From assembly GCA_043810635.1 (NCBI GenBank), contig JBDRNY010000028.1, positions 1 to 35,167 of the forward strand: DNA of 35,167 nt, written 5' to 3'. Positions 2,282 to 12,372 of the stretch are shown one piece after another. The notes below the pieces were generated by a model. It did no database searches, was not told where the DNA came from, and saw only the letters and a list, made by a program, of their open reading frames with translations. The position numbers and the translations under genes were made by a program. Origin of the DNA: Candidatus Micrarchaeota archaeon. GTDB lineage: Archaea > Micrarchaeota > Micrarchaeia > Anstonellales > Anstonellaceae. How positions within the stretch are numbered: position 1 is the stretch's first letter; every line of letters begins with the position of its first letter.

Positions 2282-2339
2282 GAATATATTTAAACATTCA
2301 ATAAATGTGGATAACATGGCAAAAAGAAAAAATAACTTT

Positions 2340-2394
2340 TTGCCAGACTTTGCCGGAAATGCCCGGTAAAATTTGGAGGCAAAGCTGATGGTAA
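2340..2394 (+). promoter_or_regulatory. Family D start-codon-covering hairpin, copy 1 (uORF 2316-2369 MAKRKNNFLPDFAGNAR runs into it)
   Basis: TTGCCA-GA-CTTTGCC ... GGCAAAG-CT-GA-TGGTAA; homologous to the hairpin at 8353-8403. Confidence 0.7.
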
Positions 2395-2927
2395 CAAGAA
2401 AAAGGCGAAAAGCGGGAAGGAAGGCGGGAAAAGCGACAAAGGCGCGTGTAAAAAAAATAAAGCGGGCAAAAAAAGGCGGACAAAAATTGAAAAAGGCGAA
2501 AAAAACAAAGGCGGGAAGGAAAATTAGAGCAAAAAAAATATTGAAAGAGATGCCTGCTTCGGAAGAGAAAAAAATAATTTACAGAAATACTGCAAGATTT
2601 TATTCACTGCCTGTGCAATTAAACCTTGTAATAAACGGCACGCCGTTCCACCTCATAACCCATCCGTTTGTAAGGTTTCATGCAGTGCAATCCACAATTA
2701 TAGGGTGGAAATTTTCAATTACATATTCATTGCTGATAATTTTCTCATTATTGAATATATTTTTGTTTAAGGGAGTTTATTTGGAATGGCTGGTATTGCT
2801 GTTCGCTGCCGCTTTAATTGTGCATTCCCTTATTTCAATTTTTCTTATCAACAAAACTGAAAAAGGAAAAGTGGTTGCGCTGCCGATAATGGGCAGGATG
2901 GCAAGAAGGATTGCAATGGTGGGCTGA
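2388..2927 (+). CDS. DUF4870/Tic20-like membrane protein with Lys/Arg-rich N-terminus
   Basis: FVRFHAVQS motif, hydrophobic helices, C-terminal LPIMG; SD GGAGG; stop overlaps the eno start (TGATG). Confidence 0.7.
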   Translation: MVTRKRRKAGRKAGKATKARVKKIKRAKKGGQKLKKAKKTKAGRKIRAKKILKEMPASEEKKIIYRNTARFYSLPVQLNLVINGTPFHLITHPFVRFHAVQSTIIGWKFSITYSLLIIFSLLNIFLFKGVYLEWLVLLFAAALIVHSLISIFLINKTEKGKVVALPIMGRMARRIAMVG

Positions 2928-4196
2928 TGCCGAAAATAAAATCAATTTACGGGAGGCAGGTGCTGGACAGCAGGGGAAACCCTACAGTGCAGGCAATTGT
3001 TCAATTAGATAATGGAATTTGTGCAAGTGCGATTGCGCCCAGCGGGGCGTCTACAGGAAGATTGGAAGCAGTTGAATTAAGGGATGGCGGAAAAGAGTTT
3101 GAAGGGAAAGGAGTAGGCAGGGCCGTGAATAATATTAATACTGCAATTGCAAGGGCAGTTAAGGGGATGGATGCCGGAGAGTATGAAAAAATTGATGCAA
3201 AAATGTGTGAAATAGACGGCACTGCGAATAAGGCGAAATTAGGGGCAAATGCAACAACTGCAGTGTCAATGGCTGTATTAAGGGCTGCGGCAGCTGCAAA
3301 GGGGATGCCGATATATGAATTTATGGAGGGAAATGTGCTTCCGATTCCGTTTATGAATGTAATTAACGGGGGAAAGCATGCGGGCAGCGGGCTGGCTGTG
3401 CAGGAATTTATGCTTGCGCCTGTTGGATTTAAGAATTTTTCAGATGCCATGCGTGCCGGGGTGGAAGTTTATCATATACTTAAGGAAATTATTAAGAAAA
3501 GATATGGAAGCGGAGGAACAAATGTCGGGGATGAGGGGGGATTCGCCCCCATGGTGGAAGAAACCGGGGATGCGTTGCAATTATTGGAAGACGGAATTGA
3601 TGAAGCGGGGTATGGAAAAAAAGTTTTGCTTGCATCAGATGCTGCGGCAAGCGAATTTTATAATGAAAAATCTGAAAGATATTCTATTGACGGGCAGGAA
3701 TTGGAAGGGGATGAATTAATTGATTATTGGAAAAGCATTGCAGAGCAGTATCCGATAATAAGCTTGGAAGACCCGTTTGAAGAAAAAGATTTTTATCATT
3801 TTGCAAAATTGAGGGGGGAAATTGGAAAGAGGTGCCAAATTGTCGGGGATGATTTAACTGTTACAAATTTGAAAATGGTTAAAAAAGCAAAAAAAAGAGA
3901 GGGCAATTAATGCATTGCTTTTGAAAGTAAATCAAATTGGCACTGTAAGCGAAGCTGTTGAAGCGGCAGAATATTGTTTTGCCCATAAAATGGGCGTAAT
4001 GGTAAGCCATCGTTCGGGAGAAACCGAAGATACTACTATTGCGGATTTGGCTGTTGGATTGAATTGCGGGCAGATTAAAACAGGCGCGCCTGCAAGAGGG
4101 GAAAGAACTGCTAAATACAATAGATTGACTGCAATTGAAGAGGAATTGGGAAAAAAGGCAAAATATTTGGGGGAGAAAGCATTAGTCAGGTATTGA
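2927..4196 (+). CDS. eno: Enolase, split by a +1 frameshift in the A8 run at 3889-3896
   Basis: [30 protein letters not shown] in ORF 2927-3910; [26 protein letters not shown] in the next frame; deleting one A joins them. Confidence 0.93.
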
Positions 4197-4463
4197 TTTA
4201 TTTTCTTTTTTTGGAAAATGGTTTTTGAAAAAATCTTTTATAGGGTGCTTTTTCTCTTTATTTTGGGTGGAATTTTCGGATTGCTCAGAATTTTCAGGGA
4301 TAATACGCCTGATGAAGACGTTATTTTCTTTTTCATCATAAGTGACTGTGACACTAAACCCTTCCTTTCTAATAAGATTGACTGCTCTCATTATTCTTTT
4401 TCTTACTTTTCGGTCGACAACTTCCATCTTAGGGATATCTGAAAATTTCTTCATGCAACCCAC
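4182..4463 (-). CDS. Small hypothetical protein
   Basis: 93-aa ORF 6 nt downstream of the preceding minus-strand gene; fills the gap and overlaps the eno 3' end by 15 nt. Confidence 0.55.
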
Positions 4464-4469
4464 TTTTTC

Positions 4470-5135
4470 CTAATCAATATTTTTCTCAACCCAGCTTTGG
4501 GTTTTGAATCCGGAAGCAGTGTAATTTGAGTTTATTACAATGCTTGGAAAGGAATTTACTTCATATTTCATCATAAGCGCATCAACAATCGCGCTTCCAA
4601 GCTCTCCGTCAAAAGAGTAGATTCTTACATTTTCGCCAAGCTTTTTCTTTAATTGTGAAAGCTCTTCCCCCTGCTGGGCGCAGTCATCGCATTGTTTGTT
4701 CGAATAAAAGTAAAGTATGGTGGAATAGTTTGCACCGCATGTACCCCTCACTTTTTGGGAAAGAAGGAAAGTGTTTGCCTCAAGCATAAAATATTTTTTC
4801 TTAAGTTCAACATCTTCAACTCCCCTCTTTTCCTCAAGATAAGATATTTTGCTTCCCAATTCTTCGGTTCGGATGTCTAATTTTGACAATTCATCCCTGT
4901 ATACGGGGCAGAAGGCGGGGGAATCCTCTTCAAGAAGGTAGAGAAGCTCGATGGAATTTATGTCAGCACTCACTTCATCTATTCCCGAAGAAAGCCCTGT
5001 AATGCTTGCCTGCTCAATCATTTTTCCGATATAAATTCCTGATATGAAAATAATCGTGCTGATAAACAGTGCCGCAAGGTAGAGGGAAAGGCTTATTCTC
5101 CTCTGGGTGGGGCGGGCATTATCCAAAATTATCAC
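4470..5135 (-). CDS. Membrane-anchored protein with C-terminal thioredoxin-like fold
   Basis: N-terminal TM helix; ILYFYS...CDDC and FPSIVIN (cis-Pro) motifs; start overlaps the GT2 stop. Confidence 0.75.
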   Translation of the reverse strand: MIILDNARPTQRRISLSLYLAALFISTIIFISGIYIGKMIEQASITGLSSGIDEVSADINSIELLYLLEEDSPAFCPVYRDELSKLDIRTEELGSKISYLEEKRGVEDVELKKKYFMLEANTFLLSQKVRGTCGANYSTILYFYSNKQCDDCAQQGEELSQLKKKLGENVRIYSFDGELGSAIVDALMMKYEVNSFPSIVINSNYTASGFKTQSWVEKNID

Positions 5136-6337
5136 CAGCTGAATTTTCCTCCGCTTTTTATTTCATTATATGCGGCGGAAAACCAGAATATTGTTATTAA
5201 GACGGGATATAATAAAAGGTATAGCACTACGGAACGCAGGCTGAATTTGTCATGCGCAAACATTTTTTTCATTCCGAAGAAAAACCAGAAAAACAAAAAT
5301 CCTATCCAAACAATGATGAGTATGTGGATAAGATTCAGGTTTAGGAAAAGCAAATCCCATCCCCAGAATATTCCATATTCCCCGAATGTAATCATCCTGT
5401 AAGAAAGTATGGAGAGGGAGACAACAAGCATTATGTATCCGAGCATGGTGAAAGGCATTACAATAATTCCCAAATCCCCGTATTTTGGATTGATTAATCC
5501 AAGGTATTTTACAGCATTCCAAAAACCGCCCCTCTGCCACCTTGTTCTTTGCTTCATAAGCTCGAAAAAACTGCGGGGAATTTCAGTGTAGATGTCGCTG
5601 TCTGTTGTGCTGTTTATCAAATATCCGTGCTTTTGTATGCGCAGGGCGATTTCCTGGTCTTCAACAAGGCTTTTTGTATCAAAACCCCCCACTTCCAGCA
5701 ATACTTTTCTTCGGTATATGCTGAAAGGGCCGGGTGTCACTGTAACAGATTGGAGCATGTTCATTATTTTTCTTGAAAAAAGCGCAAACAAATATTCAAC
5801 CCTCTGCACATCTTCAAGAATATTTCTTGCTTTTCTTACTTTTACTGCAGAAGCTACTGCGGCGACTTTTTCCGAATCAAAATTTGCAAGAATGCGCCTC
5901 AAAGAGTAGGGGCTTACATATGAATCCGCGTCAAGGCATGCCACCATTTCCCCTTTTGCCCTTTGTATTGCAAAATTCAGGCTGTCTGCTTTCCCGCTGT
6001 TTTTCTTTCTTATCAATTTTATGCATTTGTGCTCTTTTGCAAGCTTTTGGGCTATTTTTGCAGTATCATCTTTTGAGCCGTCGTCAACAACAATTATTTC
6101 AAGCTTTTCTTTCGGATAATCCAGGGAAAGCACTGAATTCACGCATCCTTTTATATAATCCTCCTCGTTGTATGCAGGAATTATTATGCTTACAGTAGGG
6201 GTCCAGCCGGTAATTTCCCTCTTTTTCTCGTGGATATTGCCCATATTGCGCAAATATACAAGGGTAAAAAGCACTGCTACAAAAAGGCCTACGAATGCAA
6301 AGAAATATTCTACAAACCACAGCTGCATTAGAACCAC
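5132..6337 (-). CDS. Processive GT2 glycosyltransferase (PgaC/IcaA/cellulose-synthase-like)
   Basis: PAYNE, DDGS, DAD, ED and QRTRW (QxxRW) motifs; N- and C-terminal TM helices. Confidence 0.92.
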   Translation of the reverse strand: MVLMQLWFVEYFFAFVGLFVAVLFTLVYLRNMGNIHEKKREITGWTPTVSIIIPAYNEEDYIKGCVNSVLSLDYPKEKLEIIVVDDGSKDDTAKIAQKLAKEHKCIKLIRKKNSGKADSLNFAIQRAKGEMVACLDADSYVSPYSLRRILANFDSEKVAAVASAVKVRKARNILEDVQRVEYLFALFSRKIMNMLQSVTVTPGPFSIYRRKVLLEVGGFDTKSLVEDQEIALRIQKHGYLINSTTDSDIYTEIPRSFFELMKQRTRWQRGGFWNAVKYLGLINPKYGDLGIIVMPFTMLGYIMLVVSLSILSYRMITFGEYGIFWGWDLLFLNLNLIHILIIVWIGFLFFWFFFGMKKMFAHDKFSLRSVVLYLLLYPVLITIFWFSAAYNEIKSGGKFSW

Positions 6338-6433
6338 ATATTGCCAGAATAAATTATACGGGCATGTAATATAAAAATTTCAAAAACACGCTTTAAAAAC
6401 CTTTTAGAGGGGAAAAATGAAAAAGCAAGGCAG

Positions 6434-7387
6434 TTATTTTGCCTTAGATTCATCTTTTTTGGAAGAGGGTTTCTTTTCATCATGCTTGCTTATTTCATCC
6501 TTTTCTCCGGGGGGTTTTTCCCCCTGCTCTGCATCCGGCTTTTCCTCCTGCTTCGGCGCCTTTTTCTCGTGTTTTGGTTTTTTGGAAGGTTTTTCCTCTT
6601 TTTCTTCCTTTTCATCCTTTTTCTCGGATTCTTTTCCTTCCTCCTCCTTTTTCTTGCCCGCTTCCTTTTCATCCTTTTTCTCGGATTCTTCTTTTTCCTT
6701 CTCTTTTTCCACCTTTGCCTCTTCTTCTTTTATTTCCTCAACTTTTTTATCAGCCTCTTCGTCTTTTTTCTCCTCGTCGCTAAGCTTGGTTGCAAGCTCT
6801 TCAAATTCCTCAAATGTAAGCTTGAATTCGTCATAAGAAGAAACTTTTCCCCCTGTCATGGCAAGCTCGCGCGCAAGCAACCAGAATATTAATGAAAGCG
6901 AGCGCCTTCCTTTGTTGTTGCAGGGTATTGCCCAGTCAATAAACATTGTGAAATTGTCTGTATCGCACAAACCTACTGTCGGAATGCCCATCTTGCCGCA
7001 CTCAACTACTGCCTGCCTTTCCCCTTTCGGGTCGCTTACAAAAACAAGCTTTGGCTCGGTAAAGTCGTCTCTTGCAACGTTTGTGAATGTGCCGGGAATA
7101 AACCTTCCGCTCACTACTTTGCACCCTGTCAATTTTGCAAAAGCTTTTGCCGCCAAAGAAGAATAAGTTCTGCTTGCAATAATAACAATGTCGGAAGGCT
7201 CGTATTTTGAAAGCACCTTTCCTGCAAGCCTTATTCTTTCATCAACTTTCCTTAAATCCAATACATACAATCCATCATTCCTCATCCTGTAAATAAAGCG
7301 CGCCATGTCGATTGTGCGCAACTTTGTCCCGATATGAATACCGGTTTCCAAATACTTCTCTTGTTTTATCAACAATCCTTCAGCCAT
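6434..7387 (-). CDS. rps2: 30S ribosomal protein uS2 with ~110-aa K/E-rich C-terminal tail
   Basis: YLETGIHIGT, GRFIPGTFTN, LCDTDN, IPCNNKG; SD GGTGA. Confidence 0.96.
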   Translation of the reverse strand: MAEGLLIKQEKYLETGIHIGTKLRTIDMARFIYRMRNDGLYVLDLRKVDERIRLAGKVLSKYEPSDIVIIASRTYSSLAAKAFAKLTGCKVVSGRFIPGTFTNVARDDFTEPKLVFVSDPKGERQAVVECGKMGIPTVGLCDTDNFTMFIDWAIPCNNKGRRSLSLIFWLLARELAMTGGKVSSYDEFKLTFEEFEELATKLSDEEKKDEEADKKVEEIKEEEAKVEKEKEKEESEKKDEKEAGKKKEEEGKESEKKDEKEEKEEKPSKKPKHEKKAPKQEEKPDAEQGEKPPGEKDEISKHDEKKPSSKKDESKAK

Positions 7388-7472
7388 TTCATCACCTTTT
7401 GCAAGAGGTCCGCAGAAACACACGCATTATGCGAGGCCACTTCTTTCGGGCACACTTGCGTATTAACATAAA

Positions 7473-7622
7473 TTTTTCTTTTTTTTCTTTTTTTTCAAGG
7501 GGTTTTTTCTTTTTTTTTCTTTTGGGGGTGAAACCCCTACAAAGCCCTACGGGCTTTGGGGCCCCAAGACGCGAAGCATCTTGTAGGGCCTCAGACCCTT
7601 TTCTTTTCTAAAAAGAAAAGGG
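7473..7622. repeat. Composite degenerate family A element with nested family B double hairpin
   Basis: Mirror-like T tracts around CAAGGGG; GGGGT-GAA-ACCCC hairpin; B element 7535-7588; perfect CCCTTTTCTTTT/AAAAGAAAAGGG hairpin. Confidence 0.7.
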
Positions 7623-7632
7623 GATATGGGAA

Positions 7633-7706
7633 TGGGGCCACCGAGATTTGAACTCAGATAACCAGCACCCCAAGCTGGCAGGATAGCCAGATTACCTCAT
7701 GGCCCC
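7633..7706 (-). tRNA. tRNA-Pro(GGG)
   Basis: Cloverleaf GGGGCCA/TGGCCCC, anticodon arm CCAGC-TT-GGG-GT-GCTGG, T-loop TTCAAAT; follows rpoN as in other archaea. Confidence 0.95.
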
Positions 7707-7714
7707 GAATAATA

Positions 7715-7912
7715 TTACATTTTATCGTACTTCGCCACCTTGTCCATTATTTCCACATGGGAGATAAACATGCGCCTGCAGCATATGCGCTTAACTCCTA
7801 AATCATCAAGCACATCAGCAGGCTTCTCGCCAGCTTTCACCCGGGAAATATAATCTTCCCAGTGATGCGCGATAGGTGCGCCGCATGTAAAACATCTTAT
7901 TGGAAAATACAT
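7715..7912 (-). CDS. rpoN: RNA polymerase subunit N (Rpo10)
   Basis: PIRCFTCG ... [13 protein letters not shown]. Confidence 0.97.
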
Positions 7913-7924
7913 TGACATCCCCCT

Positions 7925-8362
7925 TTACCTGTACGATTTCTGGAATCTTGCGCGTGCTTTTGGCCCTTGGTATTTCTTAGGCTCAATGCGCCTTGAATCT
8001 TCTGCAACCAAAAACCTGTCGTGTTTGAGCATTTTTTCCTTTAATGAGGCGTCTCCTGAAAATTTGACAAGCGCGCGGGCGATTGCAAGCCTTGCAGCCT
8101 GCGCCTGCCCCATTGCCCCGCCGCCTTTTACATTGACATGTATATTTGCCTTTGAAGCAACTTCTTTTGCAAGATTAATAGGCTCGTAAATCAATTCCCG
8201 CATATATTTATTCGGAATTGCGTTTATGTTTATAGAATTTATCCTTACAATTCCTTTTCCGTTGCAAATGGATGCGCGGGCAGTGCTTTCCTTTCTTTTT
8301 CCCCTCGCAACTATTCCGGCTTTTTTTCTTGAAGTTTTTGAAGATTTTCTTTTTTTTGCCAT
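7925..8362 (-). CDS. rps9: 30S ribosomal protein uS9
   Basis: GKRKESTARA, VKGGGAMGQAQA, C-terminal GPKARARFQKSYR. Confidence 0.97.
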   Translation of the reverse strand: MAKKRKSSKTSRKKAGIVARGKRKESTARASICNGKGIVRINSININAIPNKYMRELIYEPINLAKEVASKANIHVNVKGGGAMGQAQAARLAIARALVKFSGDASLKEKMLKHDRFLVAEDSRRIEPKKYQGPKARARFQKSYR

Positions 8363-8427
8363 CAGCTTCGCCTCCATCTAATTTCGGCGAAGTCTGGCAA
8401 AAATGTTTTTGCTGTTTTTTTTGCCAT
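8353..8427 (-). promoter_or_regulatory. Family D hairpin copy 2 plus 21-aa uORF (8362-8427, MAKKTAKTFLPDFAEIRWRRS)
   Basis: TTTTTGCCA-GA-CTTCGCC ... GGCGAAG-CT-GA-TGGCAAAAA; uORF has SD GGTGG and its TGA overlaps the rps9 ATG. Confidence 0.7.
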
Positions 8428-8435
8428 AACACCAC

Positions 8436-8858
8436 CTAAGATTTGAATCCAAACGCCCCGCAAAGCTTGCCCATAGTCGTGCTTTTGAACAAATCTTTTC
8501 TTGCAAGGGCTGGATCTGAAACCGCATTTTTCATATCAACATCTGACGGAACATCATTGTACACTTTGAGGCGCTTGAGCGCTTCCCTTCCGCGCCTGGT
8601 TTTTTTCGGGAGCATTCCCTTCACTATTTTTTTGAAGAGAAGGTGGGGGGTGCGCGGGTATTTTACGGAATTTTCAGGGTTTCTTTTGTCTTTAAGGCTC
8701 CTTCTTACCTTAAGCTTTTCCGTTTGGAATTTCAAAGTTCCGCTCAATACCAGGTCTCTTGCGTTTGCAACTATTACCTGCTCGCCCACAAGAATGCTTT
8801 TTACAATTTTTGCGGCAAGCCTTCCAGCAACAATTCCTTTTCCGTCATAAATTTTCAT
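8436..8858 (-). CDS. rpl13: 50S ribosomal protein uL13
   Basis: IYDGKGIVAGRLAA, YPRTP..LFKKIVKGMLP, GREALKRLKVY; synteny. Confidence 0.95.
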   Translation of the reverse strand: MKIYDGKGIVAGRLAAKIVKSILVGEQVIVANARDLVLSGTLKFQTEKLKVRRSLKDKRNPENSVKYPRTPHLLFKKIVKGMLPKKTRRGREALKRLKVYNDVPSDVDMKNAVSDPALARKDLFKSTTMGKLCGAFGFKS

Positions 8859-8867
8859 TGCATTCAC

Positions 8868-9350: not shown

Positions 9351-9435
9351 TGCAGGGGGAGGGATTTGAACCCACGAACCCCTAAGGGACCAGCCCCTCA
9401 AGCTGGCGCATTTGACCTGGCTTTGCGACCCCTGC
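9351..9435 (-). tRNA. tRNA-Leu(GAG)
   Basis: GCAGGGG/CCCCTGC acceptor, CCAGC-TT-GAG-GG-GCTGG, long variable arm, TTCAAAT. Confidence 0.95.
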
Positions 9436-12236: not shown

Positions 12237-12372
12237 CGCCGGAGGTGGGATTTGAACCCACAAGCCCTAACGGGCACATGCTCCCTGTTTTTTCTTTTTA
12301 ATTAAATTTTTTCTTTTCAAAAAAGAAAAAATTATTCCAGGCATGCGCACTACCAGGTTATGCGACCCCGGC
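12237..12372 (-). tRNA. tRNA-Ser(GGA) with a 52-nt intron at position 37/38 (12283-12334)
   Basis: GCCGGGG/CTCCGGC acceptor, CATGC-CT-GGA-A [intron] A-GCATG, long variable arm GCCC-GTTA-GGGC, GTGGG-TTCAAAT-CCCAC. Confidence 0.92.

Follow-up and report, generated by a model that had tools for sequence, protein, structure and literature searches.

The 35,167-nucleotide (nt) contig JBDRNY010000028.1 of a Candidatus Micrarchaeota archaeon (assembly GCA_043810635.1; order Anstonellales), taken at its whole length and referred to below as the window, carries two closely similar hairpins, one on the plus strand before a gene for a 179-amino-acid (aa) membrane protein (copy 1) and one on the minus strand before rps9 (copy 2). 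These hairpins are probably copies of a mobile insertion element, and not a conserved switch belonging to the genes they precede. The element is a non-coding repeat of ~45-75 nt that, among the genomes sampled, is limited to one order of Micrarchaeota, and comparison with relatives shows that both window copies arrived recently, by insertion a few codons inside rps9 and the membrane-protein gene. The genome that holds the window, designated G000, is a 1.1-Mb metagenome bin of 82% completeness.

The two hairpins read TTGCCA-GA-CTTTGCC-[23 nt]-GGCAAAG-CT-GA-TGGTAA in copy 1 (2340-2394, plus) and TTGCCA-GA-CTTCGCC-[13 nt]-GGCGAAG-CT-GA-TGGCAA in copy 2 (8400-8356, minus), with T-A at the fourth inner pair of the former and C-G at that of the latter. 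The original prediction had described this pair, its compensatory change, an AUG (2388; 8362) and a GGAGG (2375-2379; 8375-8371) buried within the fold, and before each copy an upstream open reading frame (uORF) that begins MAK, reads FLPDFA through the 5' arm and at rps9 stops in a UGAUG overlap with the gene; all of these are present. The name rps9 agrees with a PF00380 match and eno does follow the membrane-protein gene, and the label DUF4870 given to the 179-aa protein is not confirmed, that protein having zero Pfam matches even at E≤1. Exact matches to the arms are confined to these two sites within the window, and a reversed-pattern control across the genome gave 0 matches. Copy 2 folds as originally drawn, at -21.9 kcal/mol (z -4.6; 0 of 200 shuffles equal), and copy 1, over 66 nt, has a minimum free energy (MFE) of -18.2 kcal/mol (z -1.9; 6 of 200 shuffles) with its loop paired otherwise than described. 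Over 121 nt, the MFE fold of copy 1 contains an upstream hairpin, here called P1, which replaces the described one.

The evidence for insertion comes from orthologous sites at which the element is absent. At the rpl13-rps9 junction the insert is found in none of five relatives, and in G000 the string ATGGCAAAAAAAA is duplicated; at the membrane-protein gene it is found in none of four, the relatives' gene starting ATGGCAAA... directly, and the G000 site carries a 16-nt duplication with two later changes. The insert at glyS is likewise absent from four of four relatives, and the elements at the 3' ends of the RNase HII and AP-endonuclease-like genes are absent from four of four and three of three. 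The l7ae gene, present in 59 of 61 genomes, could be followed most widely: 30 loci were returned and one without upstream sequence was dropped, leaving G000 and 28 relatives, and the element is seen in G000 and in 0 of the 28, including none of the four same-genus genomes. In G000 this locus reads ATGGCAAAA, a 59-nt insert, and a second ATGGCAAAA running into the gene. Since rps9, glyS, l7ae and the membrane-protein gene are all free of the element in same-genus relatives, the window copies are taken as recent insertions, and the idea of a conserved leader of these genes falls away, the uORF being an orphaned ancestral start.

On either side of each insert stands a direct copy of host sequence from the flank, termed T. 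The duplications measured range from 0 to 37 nt: that at rps9 has 13 nt and that of copy 1 has 16 nt, a young copy of genome G145 shows 34 of 37 nt and the copy on contig C36 of G000 shows 25 of 30 nt. After the RNase HII element, the relatives' C-terminal codons and stop recur, and because survival of the gene needs no duplication at this site, a mechanistic origin of the duplication is indicated. Where T includes the start codon, its upstream copy is left as an orphaned start, seen as the uORF, and from the downstream copy the gene starts anew, preceded by the GGAGG that the loop of the element brings with it. The orphaned starts keep their own Shine-Dalgarno sequence (SD) or TATA-to-ATG spacing; the position of the TATA-like box before copy 1 suggests a leaderless-type mRNA that would start at the orphaned start of the membrane-protein gene. 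A conserved uORF peptide was considered and rejected, as the arm is read in two frames among copies; the FLPDFA reading proposed earlier is not kept by the glyS, l7ae and L3 copies, which use another frame. The glyS leader (G000:C21 ~39320-39345, locus L005) also holds a 17-nt remnant of an older copy, with an rps9-type 3' arm, before the full copy, each bounded by ATGGCAAAA, and this suggests repeated insertion and partial deletion.

The covariance-model search called for in the original prediction uncovered a larger family. A genome-wide regular-expression search gave two further copies besides the window pair, and a first model (R1), built on four copies (alignment A2), gave 13 matches in its own genome at E≤10, nine of these below 0.01. 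A second model (R2), built on 23 copies, gave 10 matches at E≤0.001, and G000 is thus counted as holding 10 copies. Element matches were found in 14 of 61 relatives, and of 151 genomes sampled evenly across the phylum 11 have a match, every one of them belonging to the order of the window (0 of 45 in group f13 and 0 of 25 in group f14, for example), with 0 to 19 copies per genome. Two alignments were used in what follows, A3 (31 matches from 28 of 39 loci) and A5 (29 matches from 23 further loci), whose 60 pooled rows give 54 distinct copies after removal of an antisense reading of the rps9 copy, a hit in SMC-coding sequence, one truncated array unit and three exact duplicates. Rfam holds no family for the element (window searched at gathering scores, six loci at E≤1), and no description of such an element was found in the published literature (the search covered papers outside the supplements of those cited). 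A search for viral carriers with the core pattern gave two stretches in viral contigs, both without upstream complement or duplication and probably due to chance.

The copies have a common anatomy. A constant core consists of GA, a 7-base-pair (bp) helix P2 with C-G, U-A and U-A at its base, a variable loop, a 2-nt bulge and a second GA; 5' of this core lies an arm, X, of 8-12 nt that reads as the reverse complement of the beginning of T, and direct copies of T, up to 37 nt long where recognisable, enclose the whole unit on both sides. In A3, whose rows like those of A5 are fitted to the model so that pairing percentages are inflated, 93.9% of helix cells are paired, a level that none of 500 shuffled alignments (74.1%) reached, and with slid partners 38-55% are paired; double changes occur at 15 of 16 pairs; for P2 the values are 97.2% of cells paired and double changes in 7 of 7 pairs. 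P1 and P2 both carry compensatory changes in the copy that G000 and G003 have in common at the 3' end of a DUF2666 gene. Helix covariation is strong, and the notion of a portable, structured module in sense orientation is borne out. Tandem arrays with periods of 47, 60 and 63 nt and 93-96% identity occur in genomes G003, G042 and G054, and within them the downstream target copy of one unit is the upstream partner of the next. The array sites are G054:C7 (3' end), G054:C15 (3' end), G054:C1 (start), G042:C1:437218-437455 and G003:C19; several arrays reach contig ends, and these may be longer than seen and may break assemblies.

The arm X links the structure of the element to its insertion. For the 10 nt that precede the 5' GA, a nearly perfect complement exists no more than 80 nt upstream: 9 or more of the 10 positions are Watson-Crick in 36 of 54 copies, as against 0 of 51 and 0 of 54 in two control windows and 0.6% of shuffles, and 8 or more pair in 47 of 54 copies, as against 6 of 51 and 1 of 54 in those windows. 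The arms vary from copy to copy, following the local host sequence. X finds its upstream partner in the first of the two target copies and is therefore an inverted copy of the beginning of the target. The young copy of G145, with its 34 of 37 duplicated bases, also carries an 11-nt inverted copy. Two mutually exclusive folds follow from this arrangement, both containing P2: in one, X pairs with the upstream target copy (X'up) to form P1, and in the other with the downstream copy (X'down) to form an outer helix. P1 with P2 is predicted to be the more stable in 34 of 45 copies, by a median of 3.2 kcal/mol; individually, P1 is favoured by 4.2 kcal/mol in copy 1 and the outer helix by 2.6 kcal/mol at rps9. 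The first fold would leave the real AUG free, and the second, which corresponds to the K-turn-like hairpin of the original prediction, would bury it through pairing of X with the downstream copy. Cells of the outer helix that are not Watson-Crick are G.U in 47 cases and A.C in 3, an excess that indicates pairing of the sense strand, though model scoring biases the G.U count. The two pairings are evident in the sequences themselves, and a role in controlling access to the start may be proposed. In most G000 copies arm X also contains a sense-strand run of 4-7 T (e.g., 2337-2341 and 8403-8399). Archaeal RNA polymerase can terminate at T-runs, and those of the element might, by analogy, attenuate or end transcripts.

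The position of the copies relative to genes was one point at which the original prediction exposed itself to refutation, by copies unrelated to start codons or in random orientation. Its first half went against it and its second did not: about half of the G000 copies lie away from starts, four after stops and a fifth in last codons, and orientation is non-random, since 9 of 9 G000 copies with a resolved gene context (all but the copy on contig C30) are in sense to the gene they touch. Four of the 10 are at start codons (glyS, rps9, l7ae and the membrane-protein gene) and have long loops with GGAGG. Another four lie directly 3' of a stop, after the DUF2666, RNase HII and AP-endonuclease-like genes and a 429-aa open reading frame (ORF) on C36, and the fifth 3'-end copy occupies the final codons of a translin-like ORF. 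The loops of these five are 3-4 nt in four and 8 nt in the DUF2666 copy. Apart from the four start-codon copies, those of G000 have no SD and no AUG opening a gene, a fifth AUG among the 10 opening only a 12-codon ORF. An assignment of one copy to the EF-1alpha leader was rejected, because the copy lies upstream of the conserved TATA box of that gene and thus belongs to the 3' end of the preceding one.

In nine copies across the family the A of the 3' GA begins an AUG that opens an ORF of at least 100 aa. The orphan frame ends on UGAUG in four of these (glyS, rps9, rpl3 and FKBP) and on an AUGA-type overlap in one (DAHP synthase), and that of l7ae ends 2 nt before the AUG, so that for 6 of the 9 the orphan stop lies at most 4 nt from the real AUG. 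The spacing between the two AUGs is 2 modulo 3 in 6 of 9 copies (p ~0.04 by our own binomial estimate). Among the remaining orphan frames, one makes an in-frame fusion and one runs on out of frame. Expression of the interrupted gene would be kept by the SD and AUG of the element itself, together with termination-reinitiation at the real AUG, the latter being proposed in view of the tendency of the orphan frame to stop at that AUG or next to it.

The features of the two window copies and their genes are collected in Table 1. Beyond them, the enolase gene (2927-4196, plus) is broken into two frames: the ORF at 2927-3910 matches Enolase_N and Enolase_C profile positions 3-198, and that at 3915-4196 matches positions 204-292. 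The break adjoins A-runs at ~3881-3900 and is either a frameshift or a homopolymer assembly error. Three tRNA genes, all on the minus strand, lie at 7633-7706, 9351-9435 and 12237-12372; the third spans 136 nt and probably contains an intron.

Table 1. Features of the two element copies and adjoining genes in the window (T, duplicated target; X, inverted arm).
Feature	Position	Strand	Remarks
TATA-like box TATATTTAAAC	2285..2295	+	~26 nt 5' of orphaned ATG; same box and spacing precede the intact ATGGCAAAAGC start in same-genus G003
Orphaned start of membrane-protein gene, 17-codon ORF MAKRKNNFLPDFAGNAR, then stop	2316..2369	+	TAA in loop, 18 nt 5' of real AUG
Upstream copy of T, copy 1	2316-2331	+	
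X'up TGGCAAAAAG, 5' strand of alternative hairpin P1	2317..2326	+	10/10 Watson-Crick with X
Inserted block, 56 nt	2332..2387	+	Spacer, arm X, GA, P2 hairpin with SD loop, bulge CT, G; present in 0/4 same-genus relatives
Arm X CTTTTTGCCA, inverted copy of target start	2336..2345	+	Pairs with X'up or X'down
5' GA of internal loop, copy 1	2346..2347	+	
P2 of copy 1	2348..2384	+	CTTTGCC 2348-2354, 23-nt loop, GGCAAAG 2378-2384; SD-like GGAGG 2375-2379
2-nt bulge CT and 3' GA, copy 1	2385..2388	+	Final A is first base of real AUG
179-aa lysine-rich membrane-protein gene	2388..2927	+	eno next, at 2927
Downstream copy of T, copy 1: ATGGTAACAAGAAAAA	2388-2403	+	14/16 identical to upstream copy
Ancestral SD-like AGGTGGTG of rps9	8430..8437	-	Overlaps rpl13 stop TAG (8438-8436); relatives have TAGGTGAT..ATGGCA at same junction
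Orphaned ancestral rps9 start, 21-codon ORF MAKKTAKTFLPDFAEIRWRRS, then stop	8362..8427	-	UGA (8364-8362) overlaps real AUG as UGAUG
Upstream copy of T at rps9: ATGGCAAAAAAAA	8427-8415	-	
rps9 inserted block, 52 nt	8363..8414	-	Spacer, X 8404-8395, GA 8394-8393, P2 CTTCGCC 8392-8386 / GGCGAAG 8372-8366, GGAGG 8375-8371, bulge CT 8365-8364, G
rps9, 145 aa	7925..8362	-	PF00380, 126.7 bits
Downstream copy of T at rps9	8362-8350	-	X'down 8361-8352
rpl13, upstream operon gene	8436..8867	-	PF00572, 65.6 bits

The core of the element resembles a kink-turn (K-turn), for which the available part of PMC5499556 gives a definition with a 3-nt bulge, and the original prediction, which itself noted the 2-nt bulge, had proposed a K-turn-like switch that either senses L7Ae or is opened by uORF translation. 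In 54 of 54 copies the 5' strand has GA and the 3' strand NN-GA, with a Watson-Crick C helix 5' of the bulge; the bulge is 2 nt in all 54 (CT 22, CA 16, TA 6, GG 4, AA 3, CG 2, GA 1), among matches obtained with models from 2-nt-bulge copies. In the rpl3 copy of G003 the bulge-closing pair changes from C:G to A:U, and because this pair covaries its G must be paired and cannot be a third bulge base; shifted registers giving a 3-nt bulge were rejected, since they would break covarying P2 pairs. Canonical 3-nt bulges do occur in the lineage, as GAU in P12 of the G000 RNase P RNA, as UUU in Kt-7 of the 23S rRNA of same-genus G001, and in the l7ae leader of 25 of 28 relatives, where a canonical signature consists, in order, of a pair, NAU, GA, 2-45 nt, GA and GGU(G/U). 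With a 2-nt bulge in every copy and 3-nt K-turns in the same lineage, the identification of the element as a K-turn under that definition cannot be upheld. The phrase 'two-nucleotide bulge' was absent from the kink-turn and L7Ae papers searched for it. The rRNA itself was considered as a model for the core and rejected: the first 400 nt of the G001 23S rRNA (helices with Kt-7 and H15) contain nothing like it, the 23S gene not being assembled in G000. The canonical leader motif is retained in G000 (C21 ~43040-43100), 68 nt further upstream, and this conserved K-turn of the clade is likely to be an autoregulatory site of l7ae; according to the accessible portion of PMC6298567, six known l7ae-leader K-turns carry a GAU bulge. 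In the relatives (L046-L074) its non-bulged GA-GGUG strand coincides with the SD, 10-15 nt before ATGGC, in a K-turn or K-loop. Directly upstream of the l7ae operon sits a reduced archaeal RNase P RNA (G000:C21:42783-42998; L011:1167-1382) of 216 nt, set against a 288-position model and scoring 70.3 bits (Rfam cut-off 84).

Three other explanations of the element were weighed against insertion. In one, the copies form a regulon of L7Ae-sensing K-turn operators, in which L7Ae would stabilise the outer helix over P1 and occlude SD and AUG, with P1 acting as an anti-sequestering helix that tunes the threshold. The near-isoenergetic folds, a G.U bias consistent with an RNA helix and the GA on both strands of all 54 copies are what such operators would show, and the 3b:3n pair is Watson-Crick and covarying (A-U 22, G-C 2, U-A 2, C-G 1) with G:C at -1b:-1n, features reported in the accessible portion of PMC6298567 to block folding without L7Ae, which represses mRNAs through leader K-turns (PMC5539422, available part). 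This explanation has nevertheless to accommodate a 2-nt bulge throughout, a closing pair whose change leaves no third bulge base, and a lineage that retains 3-nt bulges in the l7ae leader, P12 and Kt-7; about half of the G000 copies follow stops and have no AUG, the target genes are as diverse as those for DAHP synthase, FKBP and IDI2, among others, and the element is at l7ae only in G000. That copy, a recent insertion unmatched at the loci of 28 relatives, provides no evidence for L7Ae sensing, and an L7Ae operator regulon is regarded as unlikely. The set of L7Ae-family paralogues is much alike in genomes with and without the element, G000 having one extra weak match below the family cut-off. 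The invariant GA/NNGA core would imply a bound factor, for which L7Ae is a possible candidate.

The hairpin might alternatively act as DNA, as the single-stranded recognition structure of a transposase or nuclease of the IS200/IS605 TnpA, RAYT or Ssn-like kind, the RNA folds being incidental. Its patchy distribution, variable copy number and tandem arrays would fit, as would the G.T bias if the top strand is the one recognised, and G000 encodes one partial Y1 transposase and nine TnpB-like (PF07282) genes, on contigs C67, C74, C86, C8, C45, C38, C11 and C44. No model match lies at the TnpA or TnpB loci of G000, however; Y1_Tnp occurs in only two of the five other carriers, RVT_1 in none of five carrier genomes, and GIY-YIG was not found in G000 and is present in the element-free genomes G002 and G004. 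To our knowledge IS200/IS605 elements make no target duplication, and the transposases known to us duplicate fixed lengths. With 9 of 9 context-resolved copies in G000 in sense as well, this explanation is improbable, although hairpin repeats bound by single-strand nucleases exist (PMC11893778, in the part available). Least credible by far is evolution of each copy in place, as a gene-specific leader or trailer that arose by convergence with nothing mobile. The string ATGGCAAAA (Met-Ala-Lys) is indeed common, with 106 occurrences in G000 against 12.8 expected from base composition, 55 of them opening ORFs of at least 60 aa, and similar arms could thus arise repeatedly; empty sites in same-genus relatives at six loci contradict this account, as do long duplications that include gene-specific codons, spacer and loop strings common to non-homologous genes, and tandem arrays 93-96% identical. 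The spacer of the l7ae copy is a diverged copy of glyS codons 4-7, from which it follows that this copy was copied from the glyS locus 3.7 kb away, via the common ATGGCAAAA, and the string in its loop turns up again ahead of IDI2 in G003, in three tandem copies.

Insertion of a mobile element is therefore the reading retained. Its footprint consists of a variable-length target duplication together with an inverted copy of the target, and constant terminal repeats are lacking; this suggests that insertion may proceed via host repair or replication. Secondary copying between genes starting ATGGCAAAA takes place as well. Small dispersed hairpin repeats such as REP/BIME, Correia/NEMIS and ERIC sequences, Rickettsia palindromic elements and archaeal MITEs (miniature inverted-repeat transposable elements) offer the closest general likeness: they too are short, non-coding, multi-copy, co-transcribed, hairpin-forming, patchy in distribution, polymorphic for insertion and tolerated at gene boundaries. 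The element shares with REP and MITE repeats its multiple copies (10) and insertion polymorphism (empty sites at six loci), but has no constant terminal inverted repeats, its duplication is long and variable in place of a fixed one, and it has a K-turn-like core; we know of no cognate transposase for it. Bulge-helix-bulge introns have two 3-nt bulges with a 4-bp helix between them; such an intron was rejected here, because the copies at the junctions are direct repeats that cannot pair and the internal loop is 2x4 beside a 7-bp helix. In translational coupling, termination and reinitiation take place at overlapping stop and start codons, and in 5 of 9 start-codon copies the orphan frame likewise closes in UGAUG or AUGA at the real start, a sixth closing 2 nt short of it; the upstream ORF of the element is nevertheless an insertion relic and not a gene, and reinitiation here is something we infer.

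C/D box small RNAs (sRNAs) are framed by terminal C and D boxes and contain internal D'/C' boxes as well as guides of ~12 nt. Inspected by eye, the element shows neither an upstream C box nor a downstream D box at a suitable distance, nor has it any Rfam match, and this class too was rejected. As far as the available text of Lui et al. (2018, PMC6009581) goes, the C/D box sRNA genes of Pyrobaculum resemble the element in placing a sense K-turn-type RNA at gene starts, with the start codon in a box motif (within the C' box or D guide), and in that some are mobile, the MITE-like form having conserved flanking inverted repeats; the D'/C'-like strands of the element are by comparison a 7-bp helix apart and not separated by a short loop. 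Long, variable target duplications without a mobility gene are described in the consulted part of Furuta, Abe and Kobayashi (2010, PMC2853133), where, as here, the insert lies between direct host copies longer and more variable than those of the transposase type; those inserts are, however, kilobase-sized restriction-modification genes of bacteria with repeats >30 bp, and the element is a 50-nt hairpin with an inverted target copy. The L7Ae leader K-turns, so far as the portions available of Daume et al. (2017, PMC5539422) and Huang, Ashraf and Lilley (2019, PMC6298567) describe them, have in common with the element an mRNA 5' hairpin, tandem GA on both strands and an SD or start in or beside the fold, and the protein-dependent K-turns also its Watson-Crick 3b:3n and G:C -1b:-1n pairs; they differ in that the bulge of the element is 2 nt and not GAU, the element is inserted and not conserved, and about half of the G000 copies are at 3' ends. 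A defining feature of each of these three systems, and of the REP and MITE repeats, is missing from the element.

A fuller picture can be offered tentatively, and is less secure than insertion as such: the element may be a novel selfish package that combines a self-built inverted arm, a variable target duplication, a two-state K-turn-like switch and translational self-cancelling through its SD and UGAUG restart, with a factor, possibly L7Ae, that reads the GA/2-nt-bulge-GA core for moving or for control of host mRNAs. Several points weigh against insertion and the mechanism built on it. That the sites were filled in G000, and not emptied in the relatives, is a matter of parsimony and of the duplication footprint, and the genomes used are incomplete metagenome bins. 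Among the families checked (RVT_1, Y1_Tnp, TnpB and GIY-YIG) no candidate mobilising enzyme was found, and the mechanism producing the inverted target copy cannot be derived from the footprint. The fitting of A3 and A5 to the model inflates the G.U excess along with the pairing percentages, and models derived from 2-nt-bulge copies disfavour other bulge lengths. Perfect P1 stems could reflect youth instead of selection, a single orthologous pair favouring selection. The stop-on-start pattern suggests a filter for ribosome hand-over, on thin numbers: the glyS and l7ae copies are not independent, and the orphan frame of copy 1 ends 18 nt before the AUG. Transcription, both folds and reinitiation are things that we infer only.

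For the annotation of these genomes, the finding means that the uORF and hairpin ahead of rps9 and other essential genes are a scar left by a mobile insert and not an ancient regulatory leader, and that gene-start calls need care. A streamlined 1-Mb symbiont genome tolerates repeated insertion into the first codons of the essential genes rps9, glyS and l7ae, and a relative into those of rpl3, since a start is put back by the insert itself. With its 2-nt bulge, the invariant tandem-GA core provides a clean test of the K-turn definition and of the strictness of L7Ae recognition, and the family supplies natural bistable RNA modules for study. The footprint matches none of the transposon mechanisms compared, and may open DNA repair and mobility in DPANN archaea to study.

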